From a virus, in the IMG/VR virus record IMGVR_UViG_3300027822_000001, positions 1 through 64,000 of that record: a stretch of 64,000 nt of DNA; one strand, 5' to 3'. Below, in pieces: positions 22,488-63,602 of this stretch. Position 1 is the first letter of the stretch. Every line of letters starts with the position of its first letter. The notes under the pieces are model-generated. The model was not told where the DNA came from. It worked only from the letters and a program-made list of their open reading frames with translations, and did not search any database. The translations under genes were made by a program, and so were the position numbers.

Positions 22488-25400
22488 ATGAAGATACTTG
22501 ATAATGACCCAACTAAGAATAAAAAACAAGAAACTCCAAAATTAGATAGTGAATCATTAGAGGAGTTACGTAAAGACGCAGAAAGAATAGAAGAGATAAA
22601 CAAATCTGGAATAGTGATGCATTCTCCAGATTTAAGAATGAACACAAGAAGAGAGAAGTTTAATTACAGTGATTATACAGATTATATAGATTTAGATGAG
22701 ATAAATTTAAATGATATAGAAGCTACTAATAAACTTAGAGCTAGCAGGCAATCTACAAGAGAACAAATAGGGTTATCTGTAGGTAACTTAGTAGGTAATA
22801 CTGCTGTTGGTATAATACATGATATTGGAGCAATTGGAGCTCTAGCTTCTGAGTGGGGTAGTGATAGAGATTATACTAATCCAATAACTGAGTGGGCTGA
22901 GAAGAATAGAAATCCTTTTGGAGAGGTTTATTCTGAGTCTGCTGATGGTATGGGCTGGGATAGCGGAAGTATTATAAATCATATATCAGGAGTTGTACAA
23001 CCAGTAATACAATTTGGCTTAGAATCTATACTACTTGCTCAAGCGTTCAAACCTTTATCAGCTATTGGTGAAGGTATGAGTCAATTAACTAGAGCTAAAA
23101 ATGTAGCACAAGCAGTAGAGAAAGCTAATTGGGCAACTAATATGACTAAAAGTGTTATTAATGGAGGAGCTAGAGCTATGGAAGGCTTTGTTCCACAAGC
23201 ATTAAATAGCTACTCAATAGGTTACTTTGCTAGTGTTGATGGGGCTCATAATGCATACACACAAGCATATGACCATGCTCTTAAGAATATGAGTATAGAA
23301 GACCCTTCAGATGCTACTCCAGAACAGGTAGAAAGAGCTAAGAAATTTGCTTCAAGTTTTGCTTCTGACTATGCTAAATTCAACACAATGTTATTTGGTA
23401 GTTTGAACTTTAGCTTACTTAAGCCAGGAATGCAAACCACCGCTATTAGAAATGAAGTATTAGGAGCTTTAAAAAATGAAGAAAAACAAATGTTAGCAAG
23501 TCAAGCTGAAGCTGGTTTAAACAGAACAATAAGTGCTGGTAATTTAAAAGAAGCCCTGAAAGGAATGGATGAGAAGATTGCATCTAACTTTGTCAGAAAA
23601 GGAGAGCGAGGAATAGACTATGCTAAAAAAGCAGCTCATGGAGCATGGGTTTTTGGAGCTATGGATATACTAGCTAACGAAAATACAACTAAGAAAGCAT
23701 TAGCTAATTATGAAAATGTTCTTGATGCTAATAAAGGAGAGCTACCATCATTTCTTTCAAGTGTTGGTAGAATGACTGGATACATGAAAGCAGCATCTGA
23801 TGAGTTGGATGATATTGTTAGAGGTAACGATCCTGACGGAGCTAAGAAGCTTAGGCTATCCCTATTAACTGGTGCTGCCTTTAGTCCAATACATAGTTTA
23901 GTAAATTCTAGGCTATCTAGAACAAAAGTATATACAAAAGATGCGGATGGAAATGTTATTCCTGTGTTGAATGAAGCAGGAGAACCTACTGGAAAGTATG
24001 AATCATATAAAACATCTAAGTATAAAGCACATAAAGTTGAAAGACAAAGAGTATTTGATTACTATAAAAACAGTCTTATAAAAGATTTAGATGTAATTGA
24101 AAATGCTGATAATAAATTAAAGCTTATTGCTGATGTTGGTGAAGAAGAAGCAGGTATAACTCAAGATGAAGTTTTTAGGGACTTATTTGATTTACAATCA
24201 TATGAAATGATTACAAGAGGTGGTAAAGATTTTCTTATTAACTCTCTTAAAGATGTTATGAATGTAGATAATACTGTAGATATGGGAGCTAAGATGGTTG
24301 AACAAAAAGCTATGTTAGATGCTAAGATAGCTGAAATTGAAAAGATTCCTTCAGAGAAGAAAACAACTGAGCAATTTGATGAGTTAAAGTCTTTAAAAGA
24401 GCAATCTAAAGACTTAGCTGAGAAGTCTGTACGTTATAGTGGAAAATCTGAAGCAATGATTAAAGGATTTGCTGATGAGATGGAAACTAAAGAAAGGGCT
24501 GGAAAAGCTTCTAAATATAGAGAAAAAGCTAATAAACTTATTGAAGATATTAAATACTTAGATTCTAAATATAAAGAATATAAAGATAATTTTGGGCACG
24601 GTAAGACTGCTGCTTTGGGACTTCCTGAGTTTCTTCTTAAGCTTGAACAAAATAAACTAACTGCATCTAATTGGTTAAAAGAAAACCCCTTAATTGATAA
24701 TCTTACTAAAGGTAAAGATGAATCTTATAATAATCTAGTTAAATATAAGTTACTAGATAATAAGTTAGAGATTTTAGCAACAGCTATGGTTGGAGCTTCT
24801 CCTTTAGAAGTTTCTACGCTTAAAGCTGATTTTGATAAGACAAGAAATGAAATACGAGAAACAGAATCTTATAAATATAGAGATGAGTTAGATAAAGCAA
24901 GTGAAGAAATAAAAAGTAAGTCACAGCAGTTAACTACTGAGTTAGACGCTACAATAACAGATAATAAAGAAGTATCGGAACCTTTAAGGAAGAAATCTAC
25001 TGAGAATAAGAAGTTAAGTAGAGAATGGAACAACTTAGTTAAAGAAACATCTACATTAAATGATAAGAAAATAGAACTTAAAGATAAATTAGATAATAAA
25101 GAGGTATCAGAAAAGGATTATAGAAATCAAAGCAAAAAGATATATAAGGAGTTGTCTTCTCAGTATGATAAGATGGCTAAATTAAGAAAAACAGTTTCAA
25201 CTAATAAGATGGAATTGTCTAGACTAACTAATTCTAGGGAAACTTTTGATAAGCAAGAGGAAAGAATTACATCTGAAATAGAAGAATTATCTAAACAATT
25301 TAAGGATAATGTAGCTAATATAGATAAGTTTTATAGTGACCTAAAAGAGTTAGATAAAAGAATTAAAGTAGATAAAGAACTTACTGCCTATAATTCTAAG

Positions 25401-28373
25401 CAAGTTGCTGAGATTGTTTCTGATAGTAAATTATCTAAGTACCAAACTAATGAGGGTATTAAAGACTATATAAAAGATGCTACTAAAGAGGCTAGAAAGT
25501 TGCAAGAAAGAATAAATAAAGTCAATGATAAAGAAGACAGTAAAGAAGTCTTAAAACGTCGAGTTAAAGAGTCTAAGGTTGGAAAAGTAGTTCAGAAAGC
25601 TACTAATAAGATTAAAGAAAAGATGCCTAAGAAAGAATCGAAGAAAGAGACCGACATCAGGCTTGAGGAAGAAATAGATACTAATGAAAGTTCTAAAAAA
25701 GCTGGACTTAATAAGAATTTAAAGGAAGAGAGTACTCCCTCGCAAAATAAAGAAAACGAAGTAAAGAAAGCTAAGATTGTTAAAAAAACTAAACCTATCA
25801 AAGTTAACGGAACAACAGTATATGATGCTTTTGATTCTAATGACCCTAACTTTGAAGCTAAGTTAAATAATGCCGAAATAGTAACTGAGGCTTCTAGTAA
25901 TATTAGAGAATTAGCTAAAGTTAATAAAGAAGACACTTCTTCTTTAAACTCATTTGCTGATTATATGGATAGTTATGAGTATTTACTATTAGGGCAAAAA
26001 GATGCTACTTGGAAAGATGCTAATTCAGCTTCTTACATGAGAGATTTGGCTAATTTACTTGGTAAGTACTATAAAGATAAAAGTCCTGAAGCTTTGTCTG
26101 CTTTAATAAAGGAACTTGGAGTTAAAACTGGAGAGGAAAGTACTACTGCAGGATATATTATAGATAACGCTCTTAACGATATTTCTGCAAAAACAAATAA
26201 TGTATTGAATGGCTTATTTAATACATTTAATAAAAGGAGAATGGCTGATGGCATGGAGCTGTTAGAAACTATTGTAAAAGCTCCTACATTTACTGAATAT
26301 ATGGAGGCAGGTTCTCCTGAAGAACTAATAAAAGGTTTATATGATTCTGTTAAAGGTGGTAAAGCAGTATTTGAAACTATAAAATCAGGTAAAACTATTG
26401 TTAATAGTGATGCTATGCATAAAACAGCTAAAACAATATCTGATTTGATATTTAAAGAAAGACTTGGTAATGATAGCTTAGAGGAAACATATGGTAATGT
26501 CTCCAGCTATATATTGAAGTCTTTAAAAGATGCTTCTAGATTTAAAGAAATTGTAGGAAAGAAAGACAAGAAAGATAGTTTAAGAAGTGCTAAAGAGATA
26601 ATGAGAGCTGTCAATCTATACTTTGATTCTGCCAATGCTTATAATAAGGGTAAAAGTAGAGTTGAGAAGGAAGACCAAATCTTTGCTGATAACTATGTAG
26701 ATGATAATTTTAATTTAGTTAAGATAACAGAAGAAGATGTTACTAATGATGTTGTAAATGATAACACTAATCCTGCTGCTGATGCTGATGCTACTTTAAA
26801 TAGAGCTCATGTAGGCACAAAGCATAAGAGAGAATATAGTGTTGTTATTGCAAATGATTCCACTGGCTTTGATAAAGAGTCTGGTACTCAAGAAGCCATA
26901 CCTACAAAAGCTCTTATAAAAGAAAGTCCTACTTTAACTAAGATTGGAAATAAAGTTACTTTAGAAGTGGATAATGAATATAGTGGAGATGTATTCTATA
27001 ATGGTCATAAAGTTAAATGGCAAGACCTCAAACGAGGGCACACTAAAGATACTGAATGGCTTAATAATCATACTCCAATAAAGATATTAATGGATGGAGA
27101 AAAGGTTGGATATGTTCCGATGTTATCTTCTGTTAATAAAGAAACAATAGCTAAGAGTTCAAATTTAGAAGTTGAACGAATAAACCTTAGAAACTTTAGA
27201 GCTGACATTGCCGACGGACATACTGTTGCTGAAATAGGAGATGTAAGAAAAGGACACCTTAATTTAGTAGAAGAGTTTAATACTCCAGAAACATACTCTC
27301 CAAAGCTTATGGAAAAGAAGCGTTCTATTGGAGTAATTAAGAATGATGGTATATATGCTGGCGGTAAAAGAGTTATGACTATTCCAAAAAAGTTAAAGGA
27401 ACTTTATAATGAATTAGCTGGTAGTGGAGTTTTGATAGTAACTGCAAACGATGGCTCTTTAATGTCATCTGTTGCTTACAAATTTAAGCTTGATGGAACT
27501 ACTAATTTGTCTGAAACAGTCAATTCTAAAAACTCTGTGGTTGATGTGGCTGAAGCTATGAAGAAAATATTAGATAAGAACAGTAGTAAAAAAGTAAGAA
27601 ATGAATTTTATGATGCTTTGAATAACACTGTAAATATAAAATCTGTAGACCCAAATAATATTGATTTAGTTGATAACTATTCAATACTATTAGGAATAGA
27701 TAACATGGCTGTATTTGCTGTAAAAGGTAAAGAGGGTAACATTGAGAAGTTCATTTTAGGTAACAGTGAGAAACAAATAGAAGTTGATGCTACTACTATA
27801 AATAAGAATGCCACTGAAGTGGAAGAAGCTTTAGGTATGACTTATTATGGTATTAATGATAGAAGCTTAGATAAAAGAGTTAATTTACTTGAACGAAACG
27901 CTGAAACTAATGAACTTGAAGTCAAAAAGTCTAGTTATAATGCTCATTTGAAAGATAAGTTATTATCTAGGTTAGTTGAGAAAACATTAGAATTACCTAA
28001 AGGAAACTATTCTGAGTCTAATAGAAGAATAGTAAAAACAGAAAAAGGTCATAGTGAATTGATATTTACAAATAATGCACCTGTATATTTAGAAATGAAA
28101 GGTAAAACAGAAATTGATAAAACAGATGTTAAAGTAGTTGTTGATAAGAAAGAAGTTTCTTTTAATAAGGGAGAGTCTAATAGGGCTGAAAAAGTAATAG
28201 AAGACACTAATAAAAAAGAAGAAAGTTCAGCTAATATTAATGATATTTCTGAAACAAGATTAAAAGAAGAGTTAGAAAAAGATGGTAGTGAATTAGACTT
28301 AACTGATGACTCTAATAAATCTAGCTTAGATATACCAATTAAGAAAACTAATGGTAATAATAAGGGATGTTAA
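22488..28373 (+). CDS. Giant cargo/ejection protein (1961 aa)
   Basis: Gly-rich hydrophobic N-terminal segments and long coiled coils; its only Cys is the last residue. Confidence 0.7.
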   Translation: MKILDNDPTKNKKQETPKLDSESLEELRKDAERIEEINKSGIVMHSPDLRMNTRREKFNYSDYTDYIDLDEINLNDIEATNKLRASRQSTREQIGLSVGNLVGNTAVGIIHDIGAIGALASEWGSDRDYTNPITEWAEKNRNPFGEVYSESADGMGWDSGSIINHISGVVQPVIQFGLESILLAQAFKPLSAIGEGMSQLTRAKNVAQAVEKANWATNMTKSVINGGARAMEGFVPQALNSYSIGYFASVDGAHNAYTQAYDHALKNMSIEDPSDATPEQVERAKKFASSFASDYAKFNTMLFGSLNFSLLKPGMQTTAIRNEVLGALKNEEKQMLASQAEAGLNRTISAGNLKEALKGMDEKIASNFVRKGERGIDYAKKAAHGAWVFGAMDILANENTTKKALANYENVLDANKGELPSFLSSVGRMTGYMKAASDELDDIVRGNDPDGAKKLRLSLLTGAAFSPIHSLVNSRLSRTKVYTKDADGNVIPVLNEAGEPTGKYESYKTSKYKAHKVERQRVFDYYKNSLIKDLDVIENADNKLKLIADVGEEEAGITQDEVFRDLFDLQSYEMITRGGKDFLINSLKDVMNVDNTVDMGAKMVEQKAMLDAKIAEIEKIPSEKKTTEQFDELKSLKEQSKDLAEKSVRYSGKSEAMIKGFADEMETKERAGKASKYREKANKLIEDIKYLDSKYKEYKDNFGHGKTAALGLPEFLLKLEQNKLTASNWLKENPLIDNLTKGKDESYNNLVKYKLLDNKLEILATAMVGASPLEVSTLKADFDKTRNEIRETESYKYRDELDKASEEIKSKSQQLTTELDATITDNKEVSEPLRKKSTENKKLSREWNNLVKETSTLNDKKIELKDKLDNKEVSEKDYRNQSKKIYKELSSQYDKMAKLRKTVSTNKMELSRLTNSRETFDKQEERITSEIEELSKQFKDNVANIDKFYSDLKELDKRIKVDKELTAYNSKQVAEIVSDSKLSKYQTNEGIKDYIKDATKEARKLQERINKVNDKEDSKEVLKRRVKESKVGKVVQKATNKIKEKMPKKESKKETDIRLEEEIDTNESSKKAGLNKNLKEESTPSQNKENEVKKAKIVKKTKPIKVNGTTVYDAFDSNDPNFEAKLNNAEIVTEASSNIRELAKVNKEDTSSLNSFADYMDSYEYLLLGQKDATWKDANSASYMRDLANLLGKYYKDKSPEALSALIKELGVKTGEESTTAGYIIDNALNDISAKTNNVLNGLFNTFNKRRMADGMELLETIVKAPTFTEYMEAGSPEELIKGLYDSVKGGKAVFETIKSGKTIVNSDAMHKTAKTISDLIFKERLGNDSLEETYGNVSSYILKSLKDASRFKEIVGKKDKKDSLRSAKEIMRAVNLYFDSANAYNKGKSRVEKEDQIFADNYVDDNFNLVKITEEDVTNDVVNDNTNPAADADATLNRAHVGTKHKREYSVVIANDSTGFDKESGTQEAIPTKALIKESPTLTKIGNKVTLEVDNEYSGDVFYNGHKVKWQDLKRGHTKDTEWLNNHTPIKILMDGEKVGYVPMLSSVNKETIAKSSNLEVERINLRNFRADIADGHTVAEIGDVRKGHLNLVEEFNTPETYSPKLMEKKRSIGVIKNDGIYAGGKRVMTIPKKLKELYNELAGSGVLIVTANDGSLMSSVAYKFKLDGTTNLSETVNSKNSVVDVAEAMKKILDKNSSKKVRNEFYDALNNTVNIKSVDPNNIDLVDNYSILLGIDNMAVFAVKGKEGNIEKFILGNSEKQIEVDATTINKNATEVEEALGMTYYGINDRSLDKRVNLLERNAETNELEVKKSSYNAHLKDKLLSRLVEKTLELPKGNYSESNRRIVKTEKGHSELIFTNNAPVYLEMKGKTEIDKTDVKVVVDKKEVSFNKGESNRAEKVIEDTNKKEESSANINDISETRLKEELEKDGSELDLTDDSNKSSLDIPIKKTNGNNKGC

Positions 28374-28391
28374 TAATTATATATATGATAT

Positions 28392-31300
28392 ATGAGGTGT
28401 AATGAATTAATTAAAAGAAAGGATGGCTTAGCTAATTATAATTTTTTAGAAGCTTCAGTTGGAGAAAATGCTGCTATTGAGTCTTTAAAGAGTTATGACT
28501 TTAGTAAAGATGTCGTTCCTTTCGACCATACATTTAAAGGAGAAAAATCTAAGTTGTTTGATGAGCTTACTAATCAGTATGGCTTAAAGAAAGCTATACA
28601 AGTTAGTTTTTTAATTAGAACAACTGATTTTCTTGAAAAGTATGGAGATTGGACAGTTGATAAGAATGACTTCGTTGGTAAGTTGAATGAACAGAAAGAA
28701 CCAACATTAGATGCAGTAAATAAGATATTTAGAAATGAGAGTGCTAGCAAAGAAATGGAAGAGCCTACTAAACATGATGTGCTTAGAAAGAAACTAGAAT
28801 CTGATTCTAATTATAAATTGGGTGAGGCTTCTGTAGAAGAAGTAAGTGATATGTTAGAGTCTGGTGTTGCTCTTGCTACAAATCTTGTTATTAGAGATAA
28901 TGTTAAAAAGAGTACTATATTCAATGCCTTATTAAATACTTTTAGTATTCAAAGAAATAAAGCATCTAAGTTTATAGATTACCAAGAGTCCTTAGCTGAG
29001 CATAATAAACTTCCAAAGTCTGAGCTAGATAAAATAAAGAGAGGAAAAGAGTTATTAGATACTATATTAGATAATGAAGAATATAAAACTAATTATCTAA
29101 CCTTAATAGATTCTGAATTAGATAGTATGGGATTTAATACTATCAATAAAGAAGCCACTACAGACATAAATGATAAAAATGCTGAAAATCCTATACTTAA
29201 AGAAATGTGGGATGAGCAATCTAAGTTTGAAGTTCCTATTAAGAACACTTTGCAATTTAATATAAGGATGCTATTAGGCTCTATTCCTATTCCTGAGTTA
29301 GATAATGGAAATTTAACGGGTAATTATAAAACCAACTCTATAGGACTAGCACATACATATACTTCAAATAATATAACTTTAAAATTATTAGACTACTTTA
29401 ATCATAGGGTTGTAGATAGAAATTCATTTATGAGTGATTTGAAGTCCTCTGGAATACCTGAGTTTGTTGAGCTTGCAAGTAAAGTAGATAAACTATCATA
29501 TAATAAAGATAGATTACTTAATGCTTTAACTGCTACTGTTGGTAGACTAAAAAACAATAAAGTTGTTGCTATATCTGAAGGAAATAATTTTATTGTTTAT
29601 AATACTAATAACAGGTCTGATAGAAAATATATAACAGATACATGGTATGGAAATCAAAATATTCTATTTAAAGAATCCGATATTGTAGAGCTTAATAAAA
29701 ACAATGAATTAGTTTACTCTGAAACAGGCAAAAAAAGATTACAGCATGAGTATAATAATATACATCAAATATTAAATTCATCAAATACTAGACATATAGC
29801 TGCATCTCATTTTGTAGGTAAACTTAGTAGTTTAGTACACTCTGATAAGTTTGGAGAAGCTAAATCAGAAGAAAAGACTAAGATGCTTAATGATATGATA
29901 AGTATGAAAGAAGGCAAGACTATAAAAAGTAATAGTTTATTGATGCCTGTGGAAGATGTATATTCATTATTACCTACCATACTAAAGAAAGGAAAAGACG
30001 GAAGAATTTCTTTTAAAACTTCTGACTATGATGAGCTGTCTAAAAAACTCTTAGACTTAGATATAAAAGAAGATACCGAAAATGTAGACGATGCAATTAA
30101 CATAAATAAAATAAATGTTGTATCTCCTTTAATACGACATTATTTAGCTCTTACTGGAATGGATTTTGAACTTGATACTATTAAGAAGTTCTTACAAAAT
30201 CCAGGAAGATACATGACTGATTTAACAGATGGAGTAACAGAACCAACTGTTAAACTTTCTGACTTAACTACTCCAAGAAAAGTAGCGAATGGTGTAAATG
30301 TTTTACATTTATTAATACAGGATATAAATAAAGGGGGCTCTGGACAAAAAGATGAAAATGCTAACAGTCTTAGAAATAACAACCCATTAAATACTAATGC
30401 TTCTAAAAAGGTATTTACTAAGTTGAAAGAAATTGAAGAGGTTGCTGATTTATCTTCTACTTTTATCAATTCTTTCGGTAAACAAGAGTCTTCTTATGGC
30501 TTTAATACATTCTTATCAAAAGAGATTAACAACTTAAAAGGAAATACATTAGATGGAATGAATACAGACCCCCTATCAAGAAGAAGTCTCTGGTATAAAG
30601 CCTTTAAAGGAGACGATTCTGTTGCTGGTTTGATTGAAAGACCTGAAAGATTATCTCTTTTGTTTGGTGATGGAGTTAAAGAAGCAAAGACTGGAAAAAT
30701 AATTAACAGAGCTTCAGCATCACCTCTTGATAAAGAAGTTATGAGAATAAACTTATTTGCTTATAATAATGCTGGTTTTACTGATAGACTATCTGTTATA
30801 GATGCTTTAGTGTTTTCTGATAAATCTAGAACTAGAAAGATATTAGCTCCAAGAATTAGTTTAAAAGGAGAAGATTATAACTTTAATCTTGACTTTAAAA
30901 ATAAGGAGAGTTTAAAAGACTATTCTATAAGTGATGTTCAATATGGAGATGACGTAAAACATGTACTTACTGATATGGCGTTAACTGAAATAGACAGAAT
31001 TAATGATACTGTATTAAGACACAAAGAAGCAAAAGATGTAATGACTTCTGAAAGAAGTATAGGTGGCTCTAAATTTTTAATATTTCCCTCATTAGATAAT
31101 AAAGTTATAAATTCTTTTAAAAGGTCTGATGGAAGTTTTGATACCTCTAATAAGGAGTTTATATCAAAGGTTCAAAAACATATGAATTTACTTTTAACAG
31201 CAAATGCTAATGAGAACTTAAAAGAATGGAAAGATGTTGATTTGATAAGAGCTTCTGGTGGTATTAAATATTTAGATAGTAGGCATAAAAAACATGTTGG

Positions 31301-34300
31301 AGAGAAGATATCTGTAAAGGATAGTAATGATAGAAACATATTTAATTATGATAAAAGAACAAAAGATTCTTATGTAACAGCTGATACCGCTTTAGAATTA
31401 GCTCTTAATGAAATGGTAACTAATCTCAATATGATTCAGTTAGTTGGAGATGTTGCTGACTACTATAAAGCAGGAAATACTCCTGAAGAAACATCAGACA
31501 ACACTTTCTCAAACTACTATAAAAGACTTGGAAGTGTAGGGGGTGCTAAAATGAATATAGCACAAGAATTTAGAGCAAAGTTTGGTAAAGTTACTAAGAA
31601 TGTTAAACATAATAGAATAAATTATGTATATGCTAAAGATATTAAAACTAATAAATATGCTAAAGAATATTTAAATGCTCTTAATGTCTCTGGTTGGGAA
31701 AATGTAAATATGTCTGATGCTGCAGAATATACAACACTTAGAGACCACATAGTAACATTACATGGAGAAGGAAGACTTAATGATAATGTCTTTAATAAGA
31801 TACATTCCAAAATAATAGAAAGTTATAGAAATGACACTCTTGTTAAATTAACTGAAGATGAGGCTATTGCTATAATACCACAAAAACCTTTATATGCGGG
31901 TACTAATAATGTTGATGGACTTAGAGTTGCTACTATTGTTAAGTCAAGTGCATTTCCTTTATTAGAAAGTATAACTGGAGGAACTCCTTTTGATGCTGTT
32001 AGAAAAGCAATGGAAGCTAAAGAGAAAGAAGAAATATTTGATAGAGACAATAAGTTAGCTTTTGATGATTCTAATGAAATTTTAGAGTTATCTACTACTA
32101 GACTTGCTTTTGAATCTGGAGTAAAAGTAGGTAATGCTAAACTAAATGATATTTTTAATGAGGATTTTACAATTAAAGATGGAGCTTTAAAAGACATAAA
32201 ATATACTAACGTAGACAGAGAACATTTAGGCATTCAACAAGAAGAAAGTGAGAATGATAGTAGAAAGATAAATATTGTAAGTCAAATGAATAAACTCGTT
32301 ACTTCTGAAATATTAGATACAAAAGGCTTTAAACTTCCTGATAAAGAAAAAGAAATGAGTGGTATTGAGTTAAGAGACTTAAAAGAGAAACTTAAAAAAG
32401 CTATAATGGATAAGAAAGCCATTAAGTTATTTAAAGATGTAGGATATGATGAAGCTACTAATTCATTTACAGATGAAAAGAAATTCATGAAGTATCTTGA
32501 ATCTAAATTATCTGCTAATGAGATATCAGCAGAAGATGTAAAGATGCTTATTGATAAGGATGGAAATCAAGTAGCTCCTCTATATCTTAATAAATCTTAT
32601 GGAAAGATAATGAGTTCTTTATTAGCATCTATTAGTAAAGATGTGATAAAACCTAAAATAAGTGGTAAAGGAGCAGTTCAATTAAGTAGTGTCGGATTGC
32701 TATTTAATGGAGATATGAATAACTCTAACATCATATTTACTAGAAGAACTGATGCAGATGGCAACATAATTAAACTTGATAGATTAGAACATACTAAATA
32801 TAAAAATGGAGAACTTAAAAGAGCTCAACTTTTAGTATCTAGAGAGTTCTTTGAAAAGTTTGGAATAGATTTAGATAATGCTACTGAAATCATTGATGGT
32901 AGGAAAGTTATGAAAGAGGGAGTAATTGATGATAGACTATTAAAAGCAATATCAGCTCGTATTCCTAATCAAAAACACTCTAGTATGTTGCAAGCTGAAA
33001 TAGTAGGCTTTCTACCAAAAGATGTTAAAGAAACAGTAATTGTATCAGATGGAATAACAAAACAGATGGGTTCTGACTTTGATATTGACCATTTATATAA
33101 CTATTTATATAACTATAAAGTACAGAAAATTACTCATAAAGAAGATTTAACAAAAGATTTAACTAAGTTTAACAAACTTGTGGAAAGAGCTAAAGAAGGA
33201 TATGCTCCTAGAAAAAGTAATCTTCATAAAGTTTTAAAAAGTATGGATAGAGAAGACTATAATGAGGAACTAATAAAAATAGGAATAGCTAAACATTTAG
33301 ATAAATTTTATGATACTAAATCTAAACAACTTTACGATATAGTTAGAGATTTTAAGCTAAGTAAAATAACTATGGTTGATGCTAATAGAGATAAAATTAA
33401 TAAAATAACAGACTTATCTACAGAAGCATTAGAAAATAGATATATAGATATTCATCACTCTATACTGGAACATAAAGAAGTATTACCTAAAATGTTAGAA
33501 GTACTTGATTTACCTGATGCTAAATTAATTACTAAAGATATAGATAGCTCAGTTCCTAAAATAGAAAATACAATGTTCTCTCCTTTATCTGGAGTATATA
33601 ATAAAAGACAATATGAGAGTAATCAAGGAGGTAAAGATGGTATATCTATACAAAGTTCTTTGAGTATGCTTCATATTGCTTTAGAAAAAGATAACTTTGA
33701 GTTACAGTTTAAAAAGTTTAGTGAAACTAAGAGAGAAAATGAAAATGTATTTAAATTTATAGTAGATGGTAAAGAAGTAGTATTTAAAGCTATAGGTAGA
33801 GGAAGTTATAATTTTAAAGGAAACAAGAGAACAAATCTTACTACTAATACTATACTACAAAATGAAGCTGTTGATAATGCTAAAAATAAATTACTATTTA
33901 GATTAGGCTATTCAGCAGTAACTTCTCCAGCTTATAATTTATTAAACTTTCTTGCAAAAGATGGAAAGTCTATGCCTTTAAGTATGATAGCTAAGATGTT
34001 TAGACAGAAAGGAGTATTAGAAGCTTATAGATATGCTGAGAATAAGACATCTATGTTTAATGATTCTTCTAAATCTTTCTCTGAGTATATGAAAGAATAT
34101 GCATTAAATAAGTATGATGGAGATAAAAACTTTTCAATATCAGAGGAAATTTTAGATAAGGGGTTAAAAGGTAAAAATACTAGTGATTCTAGTTTAAATA
34201 ATTCTGATTATGAAAGCTTGCAATCTACTCTTATTGATAAGTTATCTAAAGCTCAGGAATTTGGTTCTAATCTACTTAGAATATATTCATCAGCTAATTT

Positions 34301-37300
34301 AGAAACTAAAGGAATAGGAAGTTCTACTGGAGAGCTATTATTAAAAGAATACAACATAAATAAATTTGTAGTAAATAACTCTAGATTTAGAGGAACTTAT
34401 AGATTACTTGGAGATGCTATAAATATGGATAATGGAGTAAGAAATGTTGGTGGCAATCTTACAGAGCTTGGTAGAATTTATGATTATGGAATAAGAAAAG
34501 CTCTTAATTTTTATGAGTTAAGAGATATTAAGAATAATCCTAGAACAATGTTGGGAAGCTCTAGATATAAAAATACAATCAGACAGTTTATACGTTCTGG
34601 AGCAAATAGTGAGAAAGCTATAAAGAGAGTAGATGGAGCTTATGCTACATATGCTAATCTTAATATAGATAATCCATTCTTTAAATCATCTGGAGAAGCT
34701 GTAACTATTAATTCAGTAAGAAAAGTTTTATTAACTGGAGATAATGATGTTTATACCAGACTTATCAAGCATTTAAAAGAACCTAGTAACTTAGAGGGTA
34801 GAACATTCTTAAATAACATTAATGTTCTTCCAAAGAAAAATGTAGCAGACCCTGTTATACTTAAGTTAGTATCAGGAGACCTTTCGGATATAAAGATAGA
34901 TGAGTATATACGAAGTTTTAATGAGCTACTAACTAGTAATAATAGTAAGTCTCGAAACTTAGGTAAAGATATATTAAGAGTTATGCTTTCTCAAGGAAAT
35001 GCATATTCTCCTAATGGAATAAATAAATTATTACCTAGAGCTTATTTAATGGAACATCCAGATTTTGTTAATGCTATTAAGAATAGTAGCTTGAAAGATA
35101 TAAATTCTACTATACTGCATGAACAGATAGTTCAACATAATCCAACATTATCTGAGAAAGATTCTAACTATAAAAGAACTAAACAATTAGCCGAAACTGA
35201 TGGCTCTTATGTTCAGATAAATATTGAAGCAGATAAGGCGGATACTTTACCTGAATACTTATCTGGTAAAGACCCTGAAAGAGGATATGTTCCACTTAAG
35301 AAAGTAGGTGTTGTAGAGTCGTTATCTAATGAAGAAACTATAGAAGTTATTTATAAAGCAATTTCTAAATTAGGAAGTGGTAACTCTAATATGACTGAAT
35401 ATGACCCTTATAGTGTTGAAACTACTAGCCTTTTTAAGAACAACAACCCTTTAATGTCTTTTGAAGAATATGCTGAAAATAATAATTTAGAGCATTTAAA
35501 AGATTTAGCAAATAACAGCTTACGATTACAAGATGATTATGGTTCTTATACAGTAGAAAGAAATGATAAAGATTTAATATTTGATGAATATAATATAAAA
35601 GGAGATACACCAGAAGATTTAAGTTCTGTATTAAATAATGTAAGTGGTACAAATAAAGTAATAGCTGATGTTACTTCTGAGCTTTTAGATAAGTCTGCTA
35701 AATTTAAATTTAAAGTAACAGATGAAGCTAAGGATGGAGAATCTAGTCCATCAGCCAGAGGAGTTGTTACTGAAGATGGTTTAAGTATAAGACTACATAA
35801 CTTTGATACTGCTAATTCTGATAATCCAGAAGCATTTAGAAAAGAATTTGAAGAAGTAGTATCACATGAATCTAGCCATCAAGTGTTATTTAACGAAGCT
35901 GTTGCTTATGATAAAGGACTTTCTAAAAATAAGGGTAATAGGTTAGAAAAACAATTTGCTTTATTAGATACCTATTTAGGTAAACTAAAAAAAGCTATTA
36001 TAGATGGAGATAATACAGAACGAGGTGAAGAGTTTAAAACTTTTGAAGATAAATACAATAATAAAATAGAAGGAGACATCTCTGTAAGTGAAAGAGATAG
36101 AAATCAAGGACTTATGTCTGTTCACGAATTAATAGCTGATATAGCTAATGATGGTTTCTTAGATTCTCTTAATGGCTATGAAGTTGATGGCTTAGATGTT
36201 GCCAATACTCTATCTACTAAGATGAAAAGATTATATGTAGCACTCATTGAAAGTAAAGGGTTGCAGAATAACAAAGGAGCTCAAGAATTAATAGCTAATG
36301 TGCTTAAATTTTATGATGATGTTGCTAAGGCAAAAAAAGTTGATACTAGTGTTGAAAAGAAGGGAGAAGAAGCTCTTCCTGATGCACTTTTAAAACAAAA
36401 AGAACATGAAGTTGTTAAGCCAGAAGAAGCTAAAGATATAAAATTTGATGATATTTTAGTTAAAAAAGAAAAAGGTGTTAAACCTAAACAATTAGAAAAA
36501 GATGAAAAAGGTTTCTATAATGTTAATATTAGTAGAGGAATAAAAATACCTAAAGACACTTCTACTATAGACTATTTAAGAGAGAAAGGAACATTTTCTA
36601 AGATAGCTGAGTATGGTACTAAGAATAGTAATGAAGCTCTGTATGAAATTGATAGATTAAATAAAATAGGAGCTGAAGACAATAAAAGATTTGCACTTGA
36701 TTCTTATATAAAACCGGATGGTTCTAGAATATACAAGCCAATAGAAGTGAGCTCTAGAAAGGATAGGATGTATAATTTTAGAGATAAAGAAACTACTTCT
36801 GGAGTTCTTAAGGATATTGCATCCAACAAAGAATTTAGTAAAGATGTTAGAAATGCTGCAAATGACTTATTGAAATTTGAAAACACTGATAAAATAGGAA
36901 CATTCATTAGAAGTGATAAATACTTTATGGCTGAAAATGTGTTAAAAGATGAGAGCTTTGACTTTTTAGAGGAAGCCAATGGAACTGCTTCTGGAAATCT
37001 TGTAAGAGTTAGAGATGGAGCTACTGTAAGTGAATATTTACATGAAGTATATCATACATATTTAACAGACTTGATAGCTAATAATCCTAAGTTTAGAAAT
37101 AAACTTAAAGATTATCAAAAAAGAGTGCTAGAAAATTTTAAAGATAATAGAATAATTGATGACATATATAAAGATTTAGACGAATTTGCTGTTATGGCAG
37201 TAACTAAACCTGAGTTAATTTCCTTATTAAAATCTATGCACAGTGTAGATAAAGAAGGAAGTGTGTTATACGATGAACTTGTAGATAAGTATAAAGAAGC

Positions 37301-37580
37301 TGGTAAAGACACTGGAATATATGAAGAAATAAAGACCTTATTGAACGACAATATAAATATGAATAAAGGTGAGTTGTCGATTTCACAAGAGGCTGCGAAT
37401 TGGAGCGATTACTATAATAGAGGTGGTACTGTTGATGGATTATCTGTTGAACAAAAATATCTAATAGGTATTGGAAAAGAACCAACAGAAGTCAATAGTC
37501 ATCTCAAAGAAATACAAGAAAGAGTTCCTAATTTTACAATGGCTGACCTAACAGAGTTGGCAAGAAGTATTTACTGTTAA
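28392..37580 (+). CDS. Virion-packaged double-psi-barrel RNA polymerase with two C-terminal zincin domains
   Basis: ARIPNQKHSSM and GSDFDID (33075-33089; DFDID is the catalytic motif of phi14:2 gp66-type RNAPs); PQKP, KSSAFPL, ESGVKVG, VDNAK; HESSH and HEVYH. Confidence 0.9.
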   Translation: MRCNELIKRKDGLANYNFLEASVGENAAIESLKSYDFSKDVVPFDHTFKGEKSKLFDELTNQYGLKKAIQVSFLIRTTDFLEKYGDWTVDKNDFVGKLNEQKEPTLDAVNKIFRNESASKEMEEPTKHDVLRKKLESDSNYKLGEASVEEVSDMLESGVALATNLVIRDNVKKSTIFNALLNTFSIQRNKASKFIDYQESLAEHNKLPKSELDKIKRGKELLDTILDNEEYKTNYLTLIDSELDSMGFNTINKEATTDINDKNAENPILKEMWDEQSKFEVPIKNTLQFNIRMLLGSIPIPELDNGNLTGNYKTNSIGLAHTYTSNNITLKLLDYFNHRVVDRNSFMSDLKSSGIPEFVELASKVDKLSYNKDRLLNALTATVGRLKNNKVVAISEGNNFIVYNTNNRSDRKYITDTWYGNQNILFKESDIVELNKNNELVYSETGKKRLQHEYNNIHQILNSSNTRHIAASHFVGKLSSLVHSDKFGEAKSEEKTKMLNDMISMKEGKTIKSNSLLMPVEDVYSLLPTILKKGKDGRISFKTSDYDELSKKLLDLDIKEDTENVDDAININKINVVSPLIRHYLALTGMDFELDTIKKFLQNPGRYMTDLTDGVTEPTVKLSDLTTPRKVANGVNVLHLLIQDINKGGSGQKDENANSLRNNNPLNTNASKKVFTKLKEIEEVADLSSTFINSFGKQESSYGFNTFLSKEINNLKGNTLDGMNTDPLSRRSLWYKAFKGDDSVAGLIERPERLSLLFGDGVKEAKTGKIINRASASPLDKEVMRINLFAYNNAGFTDRLSVIDALVFSDKSRTRKILAPRISLKGEDYNFNLDFKNKESLKDYSISDVQYGDDVKHVLTDMALTEIDRINDTVLRHKEAKDVMTSERSIGGSKFLIFPSLDNKVINSFKRSDGSFDTSNKEFISKVQKHMNLLLTANANENLKEWKDVDLIRASGGIKYLDSRHKKHVGEKISVKDSNDRNIFNYDKRTKDSYVTADTALELALNEMVTNLNMIQLVGDVADYYKAGNTPEETSDNTFSNYYKRLGSVGGAKMNIAQEFRAKFGKVTKNVKHNRINYVYAKDIKTNKYAKEYLNALNVSGWENVNMSDAAEYTTLRDHIVTLHGEGRLNDNVFNKIHSKIIESYRNDTLVKLTEDEAIAIIPQKPLYAGTNNVDGLRVATIVKSSAFPLLESITGGTPFDAVRKAMEAKEKEEIFDRDNKLAFDDSNEILELSTTRLAFESGVKVGNAKLNDIFNEDFTIKDGALKDIKYTNVDREHLGIQQEESENDSRKINIVSQMNKLVTSEILDTKGFKLPDKEKEMSGIELRDLKEKLKKAIMDKKAIKLFKDVGYDEATNSFTDEKKFMKYLESKLSANEISAEDVKMLIDKDGNQVAPLYLNKSYGKIMSSLLASISKDVIKPKISGKGAVQLSSVGLLFNGDMNNSNIIFTRRTDADGNIIKLDRLEHTKYKNGELKRAQLLVSREFFEKFGIDLDNATEIIDGRKVMKEGVIDDRLLKAISARIPNQKHSSMLQAEIVGFLPKDVKETVIVSDGITKQMGSDFDIDHLYNYLYNYKVQKITHKEDLTKDLTKFNKLVERAKEGYAPRKSNLHKVLKSMDREDYNEELIKIGIAKHLDKFYDTKSKQLYDIVRDFKLSKITMVDANRDKINKITDLSTEALENRYIDIHHSILEHKEVLPKMLEVLDLPDAKLITKDIDSSVPKIENTMFSPLSGVYNKRQYESNQGGKDGISIQSSLSMLHIALEKDNFELQFKKFSETKRENENVFKFIVDGKEVVFKAIGRGSYNFKGNKRTNLTTNTILQNEAVDNAKNKLLFRLGYSAVTSPAYNLLNFLAKDGKSMPLSMIAKMFRQKGVLEAYRYAENKTSMFNDSSKSFSEYMKEYALNKYDGDKNFSISEEILDKGLKGKNTSDSSLNNSDYESLQSTLIDKLSKAQEFGSNLLRIYSSANLETKGIGSSTGELLLKEYNINKFVVNNSRFRGTYRLLGDAINMDNGVRNVGGNLTELGRIYDYGIRKALNFYELRDIKNNPRTMLGSSRYKNTIRQFIRSGANSEKAIKRVDGAYATYANLNIDNPFFKSSGEAVTINSVRKVLLTGDNDVYTRLIKHLKEPSNLEGRTFLNNINVLPKKNVADPVILKLVSGDLSDIKIDEYIRSFNELLTSNNSKSRNLGKDILRVMLSQGNAYSPNGINKLLPRAYLMEHPDFVNAIKNSSLKDINSTILHEQIVQHNPTLSEKDSNYKRTKQLAETDGSYVQINIEADKADTLPEYLSGKDPERGYVPLKKVGVVESLSNEETIEVIYKAISKLGSGNSNMTEYDPYSVETTSLFKNNNPLMSFEEYAENNNLEHLKDLANNSLRLQDDYGSYTVERNDKDLIFDEYNIKGDTPEDLSSVLNNVSGTNKVIADVTSELLDKSAKFKFKVTDEAKDGESSPSARGVVTEDGLSIRLHNFDTANSDNPEAFRKEFEEVVSHESSHQVLFNEAVAYDKGLSKNKGNRLEKQFALLDTYLGKLKKAIIDGDNTERGEEFKTFEDKYNNKIEGDISVSERDRNQGLMSVHELIADIANDGFLDSLNGYEVDGLDVANTLSTKMKRLYVALIESKGLQNNKGAQELIANVLKFYDDVAKAKKVDTSVEKKGEEALPDALLKQKEHEVVKPEEAKDIKFDDILVKKEKGVKPKQLEKDEKGFYNVNISRGIKIPKDTSTIDYLREKGTFSKIAEYGTKNSNEALYEIDRLNKIGAEDNKRFALDSYIKPDGSRIYKPIEVSSRKDRMYNFRDKETTSGVLKDIASNKEFSKDVRNAANDLLKFENTDKIGTFIRSDKYFMAENVLKDESFDFLEEANGTASGNLVRVRDGATVSEYLHEVYHTYLTDLIANNPKFRNKLKDYQKRVLENFKDNRIIDDIYKDLDEFAVMAVTKPELISLLKSMHSVDKEGSVLYDELVDKYKEAGKDTGIYEEIKTLLNDNINMNKGELSISQEAANWSDYYNRGGTVDGLSVEQKYLIGIGKEPTEVNSHLKEIQERVPNFTMADLTELARSIYC

Positions 37581-37589
37581 TTTGTATAA

Positions 37590-40500
37590 ATGGCTAAATG
37601 TATAACATTTGATGCAACTCAAAGAAAAGAATTAGTTAATTTAATAGGGTATGACAAAGCTGAAGAACTAATAAATAAATATAAATCAAAAATACCTGAA
37701 GCTGAAGTAATAAAAGGTATTAGAATTTGGGATGAATTAAGTAATAATCCAACCTATGCAGAAAGTAATGCTGACTTGCTAGAGAAATCAACTATAGAAT
37801 TTACAGCTTCTGCTAGCTCAGCTATCGGAAAGACTTTATTTAAGTTAAACAATGAACTTAAAAAACAAAGATTAAATCTACGAAATGATGTTGATGCTGA
37901 AAAATCCAACGCTAAGATTGTAGAATTGGAAGATAATATAAGACAGCTTAAAAATAATAAAAGCTTAATGTCTATTGTAGATATAACTAAGACGAGCTTA
38001 GATAGCTGGATAAAAAAAGATGTGTTTGAAAGTAAAGATTATTCTATATCTACAGTTAAAAAAGCATATGATGAATTAGAAGTGCTTGATGGCATTATAA
38101 AAGAATTACTTGTTAGAGAAGTAGATTTAAAAACTGGTAAAAATAAATATAAATTTACTAATAAAAAAGTATTTGATGAAGCTGAAAAAGTCGTAGGAGA
38201 GATAGCAATTACTAAGAATAAACTTAATGGTATCTTAGATAAAGTTGTATTAACAGAACATAATAAAGTAATGAATCGTAATGCTACAATAGATGACTTA
38301 ACTAACTATATAGATACAGATATGGGTACAGCTGTATTTCTAGACCCATCAAGGACTAAAAATCCAATAGCTAAATTTGTTCACAAAATAATGGCATTTA
38401 GAAGTAAGAATGCTAAGGTGGAATTAAATGAAACATTAGTTAAAACTATTGATAAGTTAGCTAAAGATTCAGGTTTAGATATGACAAAACAAGCCAATAA
38501 TGATATCTTCTTACAGAAAGACAAGAATGGAAAAACATTACCAAATATACTATCTGAATATAGCTATGAATACTCTGAATTTTATACTGATTTAAGAGAC
38601 TCTTTAGCATCATACTCTAGAGTAGCTGAACATGTAAGTAGAAAGAATTCAAAGTTGGCTAAGAGAGGAAACGAATTAGTTGATAAAATAAATAAAAATT
38701 ATATAGTAGCAGATACTAGAAAGCTACTAAGTAGTGATGAGAAAGTGGTAGAAGAAGAAAAAAGTAGGATGATTTCTGAAGTTGGTGAAGAAAAAGCAAC
38801 CGAGTTAATTGAACAAGCCATAGATAGATATGATAAGTATCAAAATCAATATGAAGCTTATAAAGAGAGATTAGATATGAGTAAAGATAACGACTCAGAT
38901 AGTATAGAAAGTGCTTCTAAGTTAGCCGCAAAACTAAAAAGCTTTGAAAATAGATATAGCCCTCTAAAAGTACTGGAGGCTTTAAGTGGTGAAGGCGGAG
39001 ATATTCTTCTTAATGGTTTTTATAAGTTAGCAATAGCTCCAAAAAGAATGATAGACAATAAAGACACTGGCTTTTATGATAAACGATATAATGCTTTAAA
39101 AAACAATAAAGAAAACAGTAAAAAATATGAGCTACTTAGCTTTATTAAGAACAAATTAAAAGAATATTATAGCTATTTTCCGCCAGAAGTTACAGATAAA
39201 TTACAAGATAATTATTTAGCGGAAGTCTTTGGAGATAACTTATTTGATGTATTTAAAAAAGGCAATGTAAATATTCTAAAAGATAAAATATATGAATCCG
39301 TAGCTACTAAAGAAGTTAATAATATACAGAGAGGTATTGTTAATGCTAAAAATCAACAAATAAAGAAAGTTCCTATAGAATACATGTCAGATAAAATAGG
39401 AAATCTTAATTATAGAATAAAGCGGATAAATAGTAAAATTGAAGAAAATAATGATATTATAGAATCTTATTTGCAAGACATAGAAAAGTATCAGACATCG
39501 CAACTAAAGTTTACAAATGTTAAGTCTATATTTGACAGCTATAACGAACGTATTAAAAGTAAATATGACAAAATAGCTGAATTAGAACAACAAAATAGTG
39601 AACTTTCTTCTAAACCTAAAGAGTTAGAAGATGCTAAAAATCTAATGCTAGAAAAGAAATCTACTAATATTGTAGAAGTTATGAAGAACTTAGGTTTGAT
39701 GTCTTTAAATTATAAGAATAAGATACAAATTCAAGATATAGTGGAACTAGCACGAAGAAAATTAGTCGATGGTGCTAATCAATTAGTAGAAACTAAGAAG
39801 GGAAGACCCTTACGTGCGGCAGTTACAGAGTATGTCAACAAGAACGGTCAATCTGCAGTAGAAAAAATGGTTAATGATTCTATGGATGCCATGCTATATG
39901 GAGAATTTAAAAACAATAAAGGATTTACTGATAAGTATATTGGAATTGATGCTAAATCTAGAGAAAAGGTTTCTGACTACAAAAAAGAAAAAACTAAGCT
40001 AAAAGATAAGTTATTTAAAGGCGAGATTAAAGATGATGAATTCATAGAGTCTCTTGATACTATGAAAGAAATGTTAAATAAGGAAGCAGGAGTTAGAACA
40101 ATGACTTTATCTGATGTTGCTGATACTTTTAATGCTTATGTATACAGACTTAATATGGGATGGAATCCTCTTAGTGCTGCCTCTAATGTTGTTTATGGTA
40201 AGATGGCTAATCAGATAGAAGCAGGTGCTAATGTATTTTATAACAGTAAAGATTTAAAGAAAGCCTATAGACTACTAGGGGCTTCTGCAATGAAATCATT
40301 AACTGGGAGTGCTAATACTACAGCTACAAAGATATATAACTTAATACTTAACTATGGTACTATGTTTGATTTGCTTGAAGATAGCTTTGGGGCTACTAAA
40401 GGTCTATCAGACAAACAAAAGAAGCTAGGATTTCTTAATATGATGGAAGGTCAAAGAAGAGGTGAATATAGAAATCAAGGTGCTGTACTTTTAGCCATGA

Positions 40501-41345
40501 TGGAACATGTTAAAGTTAAGCTTAAAGACGGTACTGAAATGTCTTTATTAGATGCACATGATAATTCTGGAAAGATAAGAGATGACGTAGAAAACGTATC
40601 AGAATGGAAAGCTTTCACTGAAGATGGTACTATAAATAAAGCAGCTAAGTTTAGAGCTTCAGTTCAACAACTTGTTAAAAGATTGCACGGTAACTATGAC
40701 CCTGACTCAATGATGGCGATTAAGAAAAGTGTATTAGGTAGATTTCTAATGACCTTTCATACTTACTTACCAGAAGCTATAGCTACTAGATTTGAAACTG
40801 AAAAGTTTGATGAGGAACTTAACTATATAGTAAAAGGAAGGTATAGAACTTATGGTACTTTAGGATTTAAAAGGTCTTTAACGGCACTGTCAGATATAAT
40901 TATGAATAAATATTTTAATAAAGATATAAGTAAGTATGAGAGTATACCTAAGATAGATTTAGAAAACATGAAAAGAAATGCAGTTGAGGTTCAGTGGGGC
41001 TTATCTATGATGGCTCTTACATTACTGTCTACTATGTTCTTTGATGATGATGATAGAAAAACATTTGCTATGAGGCATACCTTAGATTTACTAGGAAGAG
41101 CACAAAATGATATAAGTCAATTTGTTAGTCCACCTGCTATTTTAAATATGGTAAAGAATCCTTTTCCGCAGTATAGAGTATTACAAAGTATGTTCAAGTA
41201 TCCAGAAGTTATATATAAATATAGCACTATGGATGACATACATCATGATAATGAATATTTATTTAGAAATACAGCTAAACAATTTCCAGGAGCTAAACAA
41301 TTTCACAAGATGTTTTTAGCAGAGCCTTATAAAGGTAATCAATAA
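37590..41345 (+). CDS. Large cargo protein, last of the RNAP block
   Basis: MGWNPLSAASN, LHGNYD, LGRFLMTF and a C-terminal hydrophobic helix, typical of the terminal giant virion protein; single Cys at residue 4. Confidence 0.65.
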   Translation: MAKCITFDATQRKELVNLIGYDKAEELINKYKSKIPEAEVIKGIRIWDELSNNPTYAESNADLLEKSTIEFTASASSAIGKTLFKLNNELKKQRLNLRNDVDAEKSNAKIVELEDNIRQLKNNKSLMSIVDITKTSLDSWIKKDVFESKDYSISTVKKAYDELEVLDGIIKELLVREVDLKTGKNKYKFTNKKVFDEAEKVVGEIAITKNKLNGILDKVVLTEHNKVMNRNATIDDLTNYIDTDMGTAVFLDPSRTKNPIAKFVHKIMAFRSKNAKVELNETLVKTIDKLAKDSGLDMTKQANNDIFLQKDKNGKTLPNILSEYSYEYSEFYTDLRDSLASYSRVAEHVSRKNSKLAKRGNELVDKINKNYIVADTRKLLSSDEKVVEEEKSRMISEVGEEKATELIEQAIDRYDKYQNQYEAYKERLDMSKDNDSDSIESASKLAAKLKSFENRYSPLKVLEALSGEGGDILLNGFYKLAIAPKRMIDNKDTGFYDKRYNALKNNKENSKKYELLSFIKNKLKEYYSYFPPEVTDKLQDNYLAEVFGDNLFDVFKKGNVNILKDKIYESVATKEVNNIQRGIVNAKNQQIKKVPIEYMSDKIGNLNYRIKRINSKIEENNDIIESYLQDIEKYQTSQLKFTNVKSIFDSYNERIKSKYDKIAELEQQNSELSSKPKELEDAKNLMLEKKSTNIVEVMKNLGLMSLNYKNKIQIQDIVELARRKLVDGANQLVETKKGRPLRAAVTEYVNKNGQSAVEKMVNDSMDAMLYGEFKNNKGFTDKYIGIDAKSREKVSDYKKEKTKLKDKLFKGEIKDDEFIESLDTMKEMLNKEAGVRTMTLSDVADTFNAYVYRLNMGWNPLSAASNVVYGKMANQIEAGANVFYNSKDLKKAYRLLGASAMKSLTGSANTTATKIYNLILNYGTMFDLLEDSFGATKGLSDKQKKLGFLNMMEGQRRGEYRNQGAVLLAMMEHVKVKLKDGTEMSLLDAHDNSGKIRDDVENVSEWKAFTEDGTINKAAKFRASVQQLVKRLHGNYDPDSMMAIKKSVLGRFLMTFHTYLPEAIATRFETEKFDEELNYIVKGRYRTYGTLGFKRSLTALSDIIMNKYFNKDISKYESIPKIDLENMKRNAVEVQWGLSMMALTLLSTMFFDDDDRKTFAMRHTLDLLGRAQNDISQFVSPPAILNMVKNPFPQYRVLQSMFKYPEVIYKYSTMDDIHHDNEYLFRNTAKQFPGAKQFHKMFLAEPYKGNQ

Positions 41346-62426: not shown

Positions 62427-62929
62427 ATCTTGTATTTATCGGTTAATTTATTTCTCTGTGGTAATTTAAACATTCTAACTAATGACATAAGAACTTCTTC
62501 TCTATTATCATCGCTTTTAGTTCTTACCCCATTAATACTTACGTTCCTAATATAGTTGTTAAACATAAATTCCCAGCTTTTAAGTAAATCTTCAGCTGTA
62601 AAATCTTTATCGTTTAACACTTTCCTTACTTTTATTATGCCATATCGTTCCGTCTCCGGAAATTCATGTTTATTTATAGCATCATCATCTATCTCTGGAA
62701 ATCCATACTTTTCAGAAACATATCTTACGGCATCAGCTGAGCTGGAAGCAGTAAAATTCTTAATTATTCCTCTAACTTCTCCCCCATCTTCATCATAAGG
62801 AACTACAAAATGTACTTCATACTCTTGTCTTTTCAAAAAATCTGTATCTATTTGACCCAATGCTTTAAAAACTAACTCTTCAGTACTTATTTCAGGAGTC
62901 TTATTGGTTTTCTTATTTTCTTTAGGCAT
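62423..62929 (-). CDS. Hypothetical protein
   Basis: 168-aa ORF overlapping the end of the UDG gene. Confidence 0.6.
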   Translation of the reverse strand: MPKENKKTNKTPEISTEELVFKALGQIDTDFLKRQEYEVHFVVPYDEDGGEVRGIIKNFTASSSADAVRYVSEKYGFPEIDDDAINKHEFPETERYGIIKVRKVLNDKDFTAEDLLKSWEFMFNNYIRNVSINGVRTKSDDNREEVLMSLVRMFKLPQRNKLTDKYKI

Positions 62930-63546: not shown

Positions 63547-63549
63547 AAC

Positions 63550-63591: not shown

Positions 63592-63602
63592 AATTAGTAA
63601 AT

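Follow-up and report, generated by a model that had tools for sequence, protein, structure and literature searches.

Crassviruses are the most abundant human gut phages, and the storage and injection of polymerase proteins of about 0.7 MDa is at stake in their virion RNA polymerase block. The presence in virions of proteins from this block has been shown solely for phages phi14:2 and crAss001 (PMC10172136, phi14:2 preprint). The phi14:2 proteins g067, g066, and g065 are all virion proteins (tandem mass spectrometry notes of the sequence record; preprint), and the preprint describes the three as fused in some phages. For crAss001, gp47, gp49, and gp50 are separate entries in the virion proteomics, which covered reduced and non-reduced samples; these three, together with gp45 and gp46, are cargo that is invisible in the virion map (PMC10172136). 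Cysteine (Cys) is strongly suppressed in the ejection operon of Schitoviridae, in N4 gp50 and DEV gp71 (PMC11445570), and in cyanopodophage A4 a disulfide between gp27 Cys1715 and gp26 Cys5 was seen by cryo-electron microscopy (cryo-EM) in the packaged pre-ejectosome (PMC12002296). How the three crass proteins relate to the parts of the single-chain N4 virion RNA polymerase (N-terminal domain, core, C-terminal domain) was posed as an open question in a 2026 N4 paper. Here, we describe three giant genes in a 64,000-nucleotide (nt) window of an IMG/VR virus record (IMGVR_UViG_3300027822_000001, positions 1 to 64,000; the complete record comprises 92.6 kb with direct terminal repeats), the products of which carry Cys residues only at the ends that face each other across the two gene junctions.

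Cysteines of the three giant window proteins

Translation of the open reading frames (ORFs) yielded four Cys residues in the three giant proteins (1961 + 3062 + 1251 = 6274 amino acids [aa]), exactly the number counted in the initial annotation of this DNA. The sole Cys of the 1961-aa protein is residue 1961 at its C-terminal end (..NNKGC), the 3062-aa polymerase has Cys solely at residues 3 (MRC..) and 3062 (its C-terminal end, ..RSIYC), and the sole Cys of the 1251-aa protein is residue 4 (MAKC..). The outer ends of the series, i.e., the N-terminus of the 1961-aa protein and the C-terminus of the 1251-aa protein, contain none. The same annotation had described the two upstream cargo proteins (886 and 775 aa) as devoid of Cys, which translation bore out, and had noted that the N4 virion RNA polymerase is Cys-free, as is stated in PMC11445570. 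Taken together, the five proteins contain 4 Cys in 7935 residues, far below the frequency in the remaining proteome; Cys content is normal in other genes of the window (8 Cys in the 1459-aa structural protein, 5 in the 762-aa DNA polymerase, and 11 in the 754-aa ribonucleotide reductase). If four Cys were placed at random in 6274 positions, the probability of finding one within the four terminal residues at each of the four junction-facing ends would be 4^4 / C(6274,4), or about 4e-12, a figure that was computed post hoc and is moot because comparative data exist. The Cys pattern of the window is far beyond chance.

At the first junction, 27 nt separate the downstream from the upstream Cys codon. 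All three giant genes start at their own ATG, and the intergenic gaps of 18 and 9 nt suggest coupled translation.

The 3062-aa protein is a distant homologue of the crass-like two-barrel virion RNA polymerase (24–35% identity in the core), and the Asp columns of its DFDID motif are invariant in a global alignment (A1), which forces the termini together and is therefore unusable for mapping the junctions. The 1251-aa protein matches crAss001 gp49 (tblastn) and the C-terminal extension of fused polymerases (blastp, E-values 1e-33 to 1e-54). An iterated profile seeded with the 1961-aa protein reached stand-alone N-modules, including the 1957-aa polymerase-associated protein of p-crAssphage, and also spanned the first 1300–1700 residues of fused giant proteins, which is nearly the whole N-extension; likewise, crAss001 gp47 aligned to the N-part of one fused protein. 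Gene order in the window is that of phi14:2 g067-g066-g065. With the DFDxD motif, both modules, and the cargo gene all present, the block can be assigned from its sequence to the Crassvirales virion RNA polymerase blocks, and the three giant proteins are most likely packed and injected by this crAss-like phage. The search for close relatives returned no near DNA match to the window, the 1961-aa protein had no match by tblastn, and single-sequence searching of IMG/VR gave no match. Four of the proteins of the block were without a PHROGs family, and no Pfam family was found in any of the three giant proteins.

Two further observations concern these proteins. The polymerase contains two HExxH motifs in its C-terminal third (residues 2492 and 2884); HExxH also occurs in the last few hundred polymerase residues of several relatives, and in phi14:2 it lies in g065 instead. 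These motifs may represent the zincin-like protease noted in the literature, for which Pfam gave no match. In addition, a relative of the C-module (24% identity, E-value 8e-11) is encoded by Leptolyngbya phage Lbo-JY46, a 125-kb cyanophage (PP438436.1, positions 62642-63703).

Gene splits and cysteine pairs across relatives

Among 26 polymerase homologues from protein databases (about 25% identity), four classes were distinguished. Stand-alone polymerases (about 2100–3800 aa) carry one Cys at residue 3–6 and another 1–5 residues from the end; those with a C-terminal extension have the N-terminal Cys only, those with an N-terminal extension have the C-terminal Cys only, and the three doubly extended proteins (4863–5302 aa) have no Cys. 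Because the C-extension corresponds to the 1251-aa protein and the N-extension to the 1961-aa protein, the loss of Cys upon fusion holds at both junctions.

The second set consisted of 80 IMG/VR loci around the polymerase core (numbered with the prefix L). Across 188 adjacent same-strand ORF pairs, Cys was present on both sides in 81 and on neither side in 90, leaving 17 discordant pairs; six of the latter have the upstream Cys at 9, 12, or 15 residues from the end, and the others mostly involve unrelated Cys-rich genes downstream of the block. The position of the Cys residues was narrowly confined at 83 junctions: downstream at residue 3 (37 junctions), 4 (28), 5 (16), or 6 (2), and upstream 1–4 residues from the end in 78 and 9–12 residues from the end in five. 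Intergenic gaps at the junctions had a median of 3 nt (range: -8 to 504 nt). The interiors of the chain proteins in these loci contained 82 Cys in 440,779 residues (0.019%), and all nine complete single-ORF fusions (4730–5639 aa) had none, as was also the case for an ORF of >6681 aa that runs off its locus. In the loci checked, Cys was never found at the outer chain ends, i.e., at the N-module N-terminus or the C-module C-terminus. Thus, the expectation of the initial annotation that the Cys residues vanish where neighbouring genes are fused came true at both junctions, in the database proteins as well as in the IMG/VR loci. Its proposal to check the conservation of the terminal Cys also had a clear outcome: they are kept in relatives whose tails otherwise hardly align. 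In alignments of the C-terminal 150 and the N-terminal 200 residues, the rows of which were preselected for carrying the Cys pair, the Cys was the sole invariant column at a mean column identity of 9–10%.

The N-terminal Cys is followed by conserved sequence (e.g., C-P-N-x-N-S-x-E-W-K-x-L). This short unit has variants (C-P-N-x-N-S-x-E-W-K-x-L-V, A-C-x-Y-x-Y-N-G, and C..A-P-N-G-x-P-S-x-L) and is found in many loci (e.g., L066:13642, L033:7607, L016:7340), at either junction across lineages. Internal copies that lack the Cys lie at residues 570-659 of the proteins starting at L012:10558 and L015:16122. With a hidden Markov model of the N-terminal unit, the joints of fused proteins gave no significant match; the only copies detected were Cys-less internal ones in some C-modules.

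The split or fused state of the first junction changed at least 12 times on a maximum-likelihood tree of the polymerase core (81 rows). Using phylogenetically independent contrasts, the N-terminal Cys tracked this state in about seven cases and showed the reverse in none (median p-value 0.016). Splits at non-homologous positions have Cys pairs of their own. In L048, L054, and L070, the split precedes the DFDID motif by about 270 residues, within a stretch that the window polymerase contains unbroken; in L056 and L008 it occurs still further upstream, and L060 and L040 have additional junctions, in each case with their own pairs. L048, L054, and L070 are related loci; the gaps at the polymerase split measure about 480–495 nt in L048 and L070, the two halves keep the Cys pair, and Rfam detected no intron in any of the three gaps (about 490 nt). 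In L054, a 158-aa ferritin-like gene (L054:11332-11808; Pfam PF00210, 46.9 bits) lies between the polymerase halves, and the Cys pair is retained. The Cys pair is therefore independent of gene adjacency, given this intervening gene and the location of the crAss001 genes on opposite strands.

The same distribution is found in cultured phages. In phi14:2, the sole Cys of g067 (1797 aa) is its final residue, g066 (2180 aa) has Cys at residues 3 and 2179, and g065 (1421 aa) has its sole Cys at residue 3. In crAss001, the sole Cys of gp47 (Cys2339), the gene of which is on the strand opposite to gp50 and gp49, is three residues from the end; gp50 (2412 aa) has Cys at residues 5, 1334, and 2404, and gp49 has a sole Cys at residue 5. 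FpV4 encodes a 4287-aa protein with a sole Cys two residues from the end, followed by a protein with Cys at residue 3, and p-crAssphage has a 1957-aa protein with Cys two residues from the end and a 4070-aa fusion with Cys at residue 3. Across these sequences, with few exceptions, the Cys pair and the gene split go together, and this association is not due to chance.

We found no paper that describes this Cys rule for crassviruses; the suppression of Cys in ejected proteins is already known for N4 gp50 and its relatives (PMC11445570). As read by term search, the phi14:2 preprint mentions neither cysteine nor disulfide, cysteine does not occur in a large gut crass-like genome survey, and in the crAss001 atlas (PMC10172136) the word cysteine is absent and disulfide is used for other proteins only.

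Proposed linkage of the paired cysteines

The initial annotation had proposed that each C-terminal Cys pairs with the N-terminal Cys of the next gene product. This interpretation is partly supported, and all computational checks suggested there that yielded an answer were favourable to it. The comparative sequence pattern, together with analogy to the solved cryo-EM precedent of A4, lends strong support to pairing of the junction Cys, whereas the physical link in crassviruses, i.e., the disulfide chemistry as well as the threading and the reduction described below, is what we infer. The explanation that we favour, and that we judge to be probable with considerable room for error, is that, in the virion, disulfides from C-terminus to N-terminus restore a single covalent chain. 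The three genes would encode pieces of one unit of about 5000 aa, consisting of the N-module, the two-barrel RNA polymerase, and the C-module, which is one Cys-free polypeptide in many relatives. Each piece in the particle would be bonded through its C-terminal Cys to the Cys at residue 3–4 of the next, and the two disulfides would join all 6274 residues into one linear covalent chain, with only 0–3 residues left as stubs past each bond. The remainder of the chain lacks Cys, like other ejected phage proteins, such that the two junction bonds would be the only ones possible. During packaging, such a chain would hold the pieces in fixed order at a 1:1:1 ratio; the pieces would then exit the capsid as one largely unfolded thread, and the bonds could be reduced after reaching the cytoplasm. 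The very short stubs past the Cys residues fit an end-to-end joint that must stay thin. In structure models of moderate confidence (mean predicted local distance difference test score about 70), Cys4 of the C-module falls in a coil that precedes a two-helix unit, and Cys3062 of the polymerase falls at the tip of a terminal helix. Co-folding of the last 100 polymerase residues with the first 150 residues of the C-module (alignments A2 and A3) scored 0.05 against a mark of 0.32, a result that weighs neither way.

Several points speak against a disulfide-joined chain. Support for the bond in crassviruses is comparative, derived from sequence, and not chemical, and assembly takes place in the reducing cytoplasm. 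Neither Erv/ALR nor thioredoxin families were found in the 92.6-kb genome, although the Erv search found none in control genomes either and therefore carries little weight. Drobysheva et al. supposed that the fused forms are cleaved into pieces (phi14:2 preprint); if such cleavage is real, continuity is not required after assembly. The block proteins of p-crAssphage contain nine interior Cys, with some in each protein. In L034, L040, and L044, the polymerase lacks the C-terminal Cys and is followed by an extra gene of 525–594 aa. Finally, L053 (947-18216) has a split without Cys on either side, between ORFs of 4367 and 1378 aa that are 29 nt apart. This is the sole split that is Cys-free on both sides, and its two ORFs are in different frames; it may reflect a frameshift (programmed) or a sequencing or assembly error in a fused gene.

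Among the alternatives, the terminal Cys could form a docking site without a disulfide, in which two thiolates share a metal ion or the tail of one protein makes a non-covalent contact in a cleft of the next. The comparative evidence says that the two Cys belong together and is silent on their linkage, spontaneous oxidation is less certain in a reducing cytoplasm and in anoxic habitats, and the conserved sequence after the N-terminal Cys would fit a docking unit better than a bare thiol. Against this, one conserved Cys per partner with no conserved His or second Cys nearby would make a poor metal site, and the sole solved case with this signature is a disulfide (PMC12002296). We consider docking or metal sharing unlikely. 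Each terminal Cys could also act alone, either by anchoring a free end to another virion component or by forming homotypic dimers, such that the two Cys would co-occur for no other reason than that each split leaves two free ends in need of anchors. The absence of Cys from fused forms is equally expected if the residues serve free ends, and crAss001 virions contain several other structural disulfides, including inter-subunit bonds in tail and portal-vertex proteins (PMC10172136). However, the Cys-free outer chain ends in the loci checked imply that a free end per se needs no Cys, the upstream and downstream Cys come and go together, and the A4 bond is a heterotypic one from C-terminus to N-terminus (PMC12002296), leaving independent action of the Cys improbable.

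A translational origin, with the Cys codons as take-off and landing sites of T4 gene 60-type bypassing or as a coupling signal that yields one fused protein, would suit the spacing (in the window, a Cys codon 0–3 codons before the stop and the next one 21–27 nt downstream; short gaps in most loci, median 3 nt), but it is very hard to credit because every downstream gene has its own ATG 2–5 codons before the Cys, gaps span -8 to 504 nt with a ferritin-like gene between the halves in L054, the crAss001 N-module gene keeps its C-terminal Cys on the other strand, natural fusions have no Cys at the joint, and gp47, gp49, and gp50 are separate in crAss001 virion proteomics (PMC10172136), such that the dispensable adjacency and the ATG before every downstream Cys rule out bypassing or any cis-acting translation signal. 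A split intein was rejected as well: no Pfam family was found in the three giant proteins, and Cys located 0–3 residues from the C-terminus and at residue 3–6 leave no room for one.

The Cys rule offers a concrete answer to how the three proteins are related: they would be one chain, continuous through peptide bonds in some phages and, in others, probably joined by disulfides. The chain predicts the order of the pieces, their 1:1:1 ratio, and a high-mass species that is broken up by reduction. A broader version, which we put forward tentatively and regard as possible, is that crass-like phages must deliver a continuous thread of about 5000–6700 residues, that gene fission is tolerated only with a disulfide suture, and that the same solution arose independently in a cyanopodophage. 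If so, podophages would have a general means of arranging several ejected proteins in order and threading them, with the reducing cell interior as the release switch, and the N-module would be the membrane-facing part of the thread. The rule is also of practical use in annotation: within giant, fast-evolving blocks, true gene boundaries can be recognised by a Cys pair, and where a split lacks one, a frameshift or an error of assembly may be suspected.

Gene map and related ejection systems

The features of the locus are listed in Table 1. Judged from its gene position, the 1459-aa structural protein is the counterpart of the muzzle protein. The 886-aa protein reached 37 bits with the Pfam model (cut-off 27), and the gene of the 775-aa protein sits where gp46 does in crAss001; the family search with this protein (PHROGs, Pfam) gave no match. 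The extra-gene products of L034, L040, and L044 begin with a similar motif (..EAEG.ELILR..). In L083 (CrAssphage LMMB), an 861-aa protein upstream of the block (L083:1783-4368) has its sole Cys two residues from the end (..KQSCR); the product after it (857 aa) has no Cys, and the Cys of the 861-aa protein is without an evident partner.

Table 1 Coordinates of the structural, cargo, and polymerase-block genes, the junction Cys codons, and the extra genes of three relatives (positions without an L number refer to the window).
Feature	Position	Strand	Basis or note
Virion structural protein, 1459 aa, 8 Cys	12923..17302	+	PHROG 28748, E-value 8.7e-73
Cargo protein 1 homologue, 886 aa, 0 Cys	17289..19949	+	Pfam PF25725 crAss_CARG1
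Second cargo protein, 775 aa, 0 Cys	20157..22484	+	Assigned from position
N-module of polymerase chain, 1961 aa	22488..28373	+	Translation, iterated profile
TGT codon of Cys1961 of N-module, TAA stop next	28368..28370	+	Junction 1, upstream half
Virion-type two-barrel RNA polymerase, 3062 aa	28392..37580	+	DFDID motif, homologues
TGT codon of Cys3 of polymerase	28398..28400	+	Junction 1, downstream half
DFDID catalytic motif, polymerase residues 1562-1566	33075..33089	+	Motif position
TGT codon of Cys3062 of polymerase, TAA stop next	37575..37577	+	Junction 2, upstream half
C-module, crAss001 gp49 homologue, 1251 aa	37590..41345	+	tblastn, blastp
TGT codon of Cys4 of C-module	37599..37601	+	Junction 2, downstream half
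Extra gene after polymerase	L034:17386-19140		No Pfam family
Extra gene after polymerase	L040:14500-16284		No Pfam family
Extra gene after polymerase	L044:16461-18038		No Pfam family

Among the closest known counterparts are phi14:2 g067-g066-g065 and crAss001 gp47-gp50-gp49, which are homologues of the window proteins (based on the DFDID motif, the gp49 match, the N-module profile, and cargo protein 1) and have the same terminal Cys. The A4 proteins share the signature of sole Cys at the C- and N-terminus, as well as adjacent genes and the packaging of the products as ejection proteins; in the genome of Anabaena phage A-4L, the single Cys of gp27 (1717 aa) is residue 1715, and that of gp26 (1114 aa), which is encoded next to it, is residue 5. 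The window, which is known from its genes, displays this A4-type signature at the sequence level, and the predicted position of Cys3062 at a helix tip resembles the C-terminal helix of A4 that is inserted into its partner. Searches with gp26, gp27, and gp28 against all collected crass proteins (phmmer) recovered self matches only; without detectable sequence similarity to gp26 or gp27, the resemblance to A4 is one of function and not of family. Unlike the crass block, A4 has one pair rather than a chain of three or more, and no polymerase. Moreover, its authors see the role of the bond in stabilising a folded pentameric ring rather than in suturing a split polyprotein, and they describe no rule that relates fusion to the absence of the pair (PMC12002296).

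N4 gp50 and DEV gp71 of Schitoviridae are similar in being giant, Cys-suppressed ejected chains composed of an N-terminal region, a polymerase, and a C-terminal region (PMC11445570). The fused crass forms look like these giant proteins, which differ in having a T7-like rather than a two-barrel polymerase fold and in being unsplit, such that junction Cys are neither present nor needed. Another parallel is provided by split polyketide and non-ribosomal peptide synthases, in which docking domains, i.e., short C- and N-terminal elements, maintain the order of the polypeptides. As in the crass block, the polypeptides joined in this way are a single chain in relatives. The docking contacts of synthases, however, are non-covalent and cytoplasmic, whereas the single Cys on each side of the crass junctions suggests a covalent bond.

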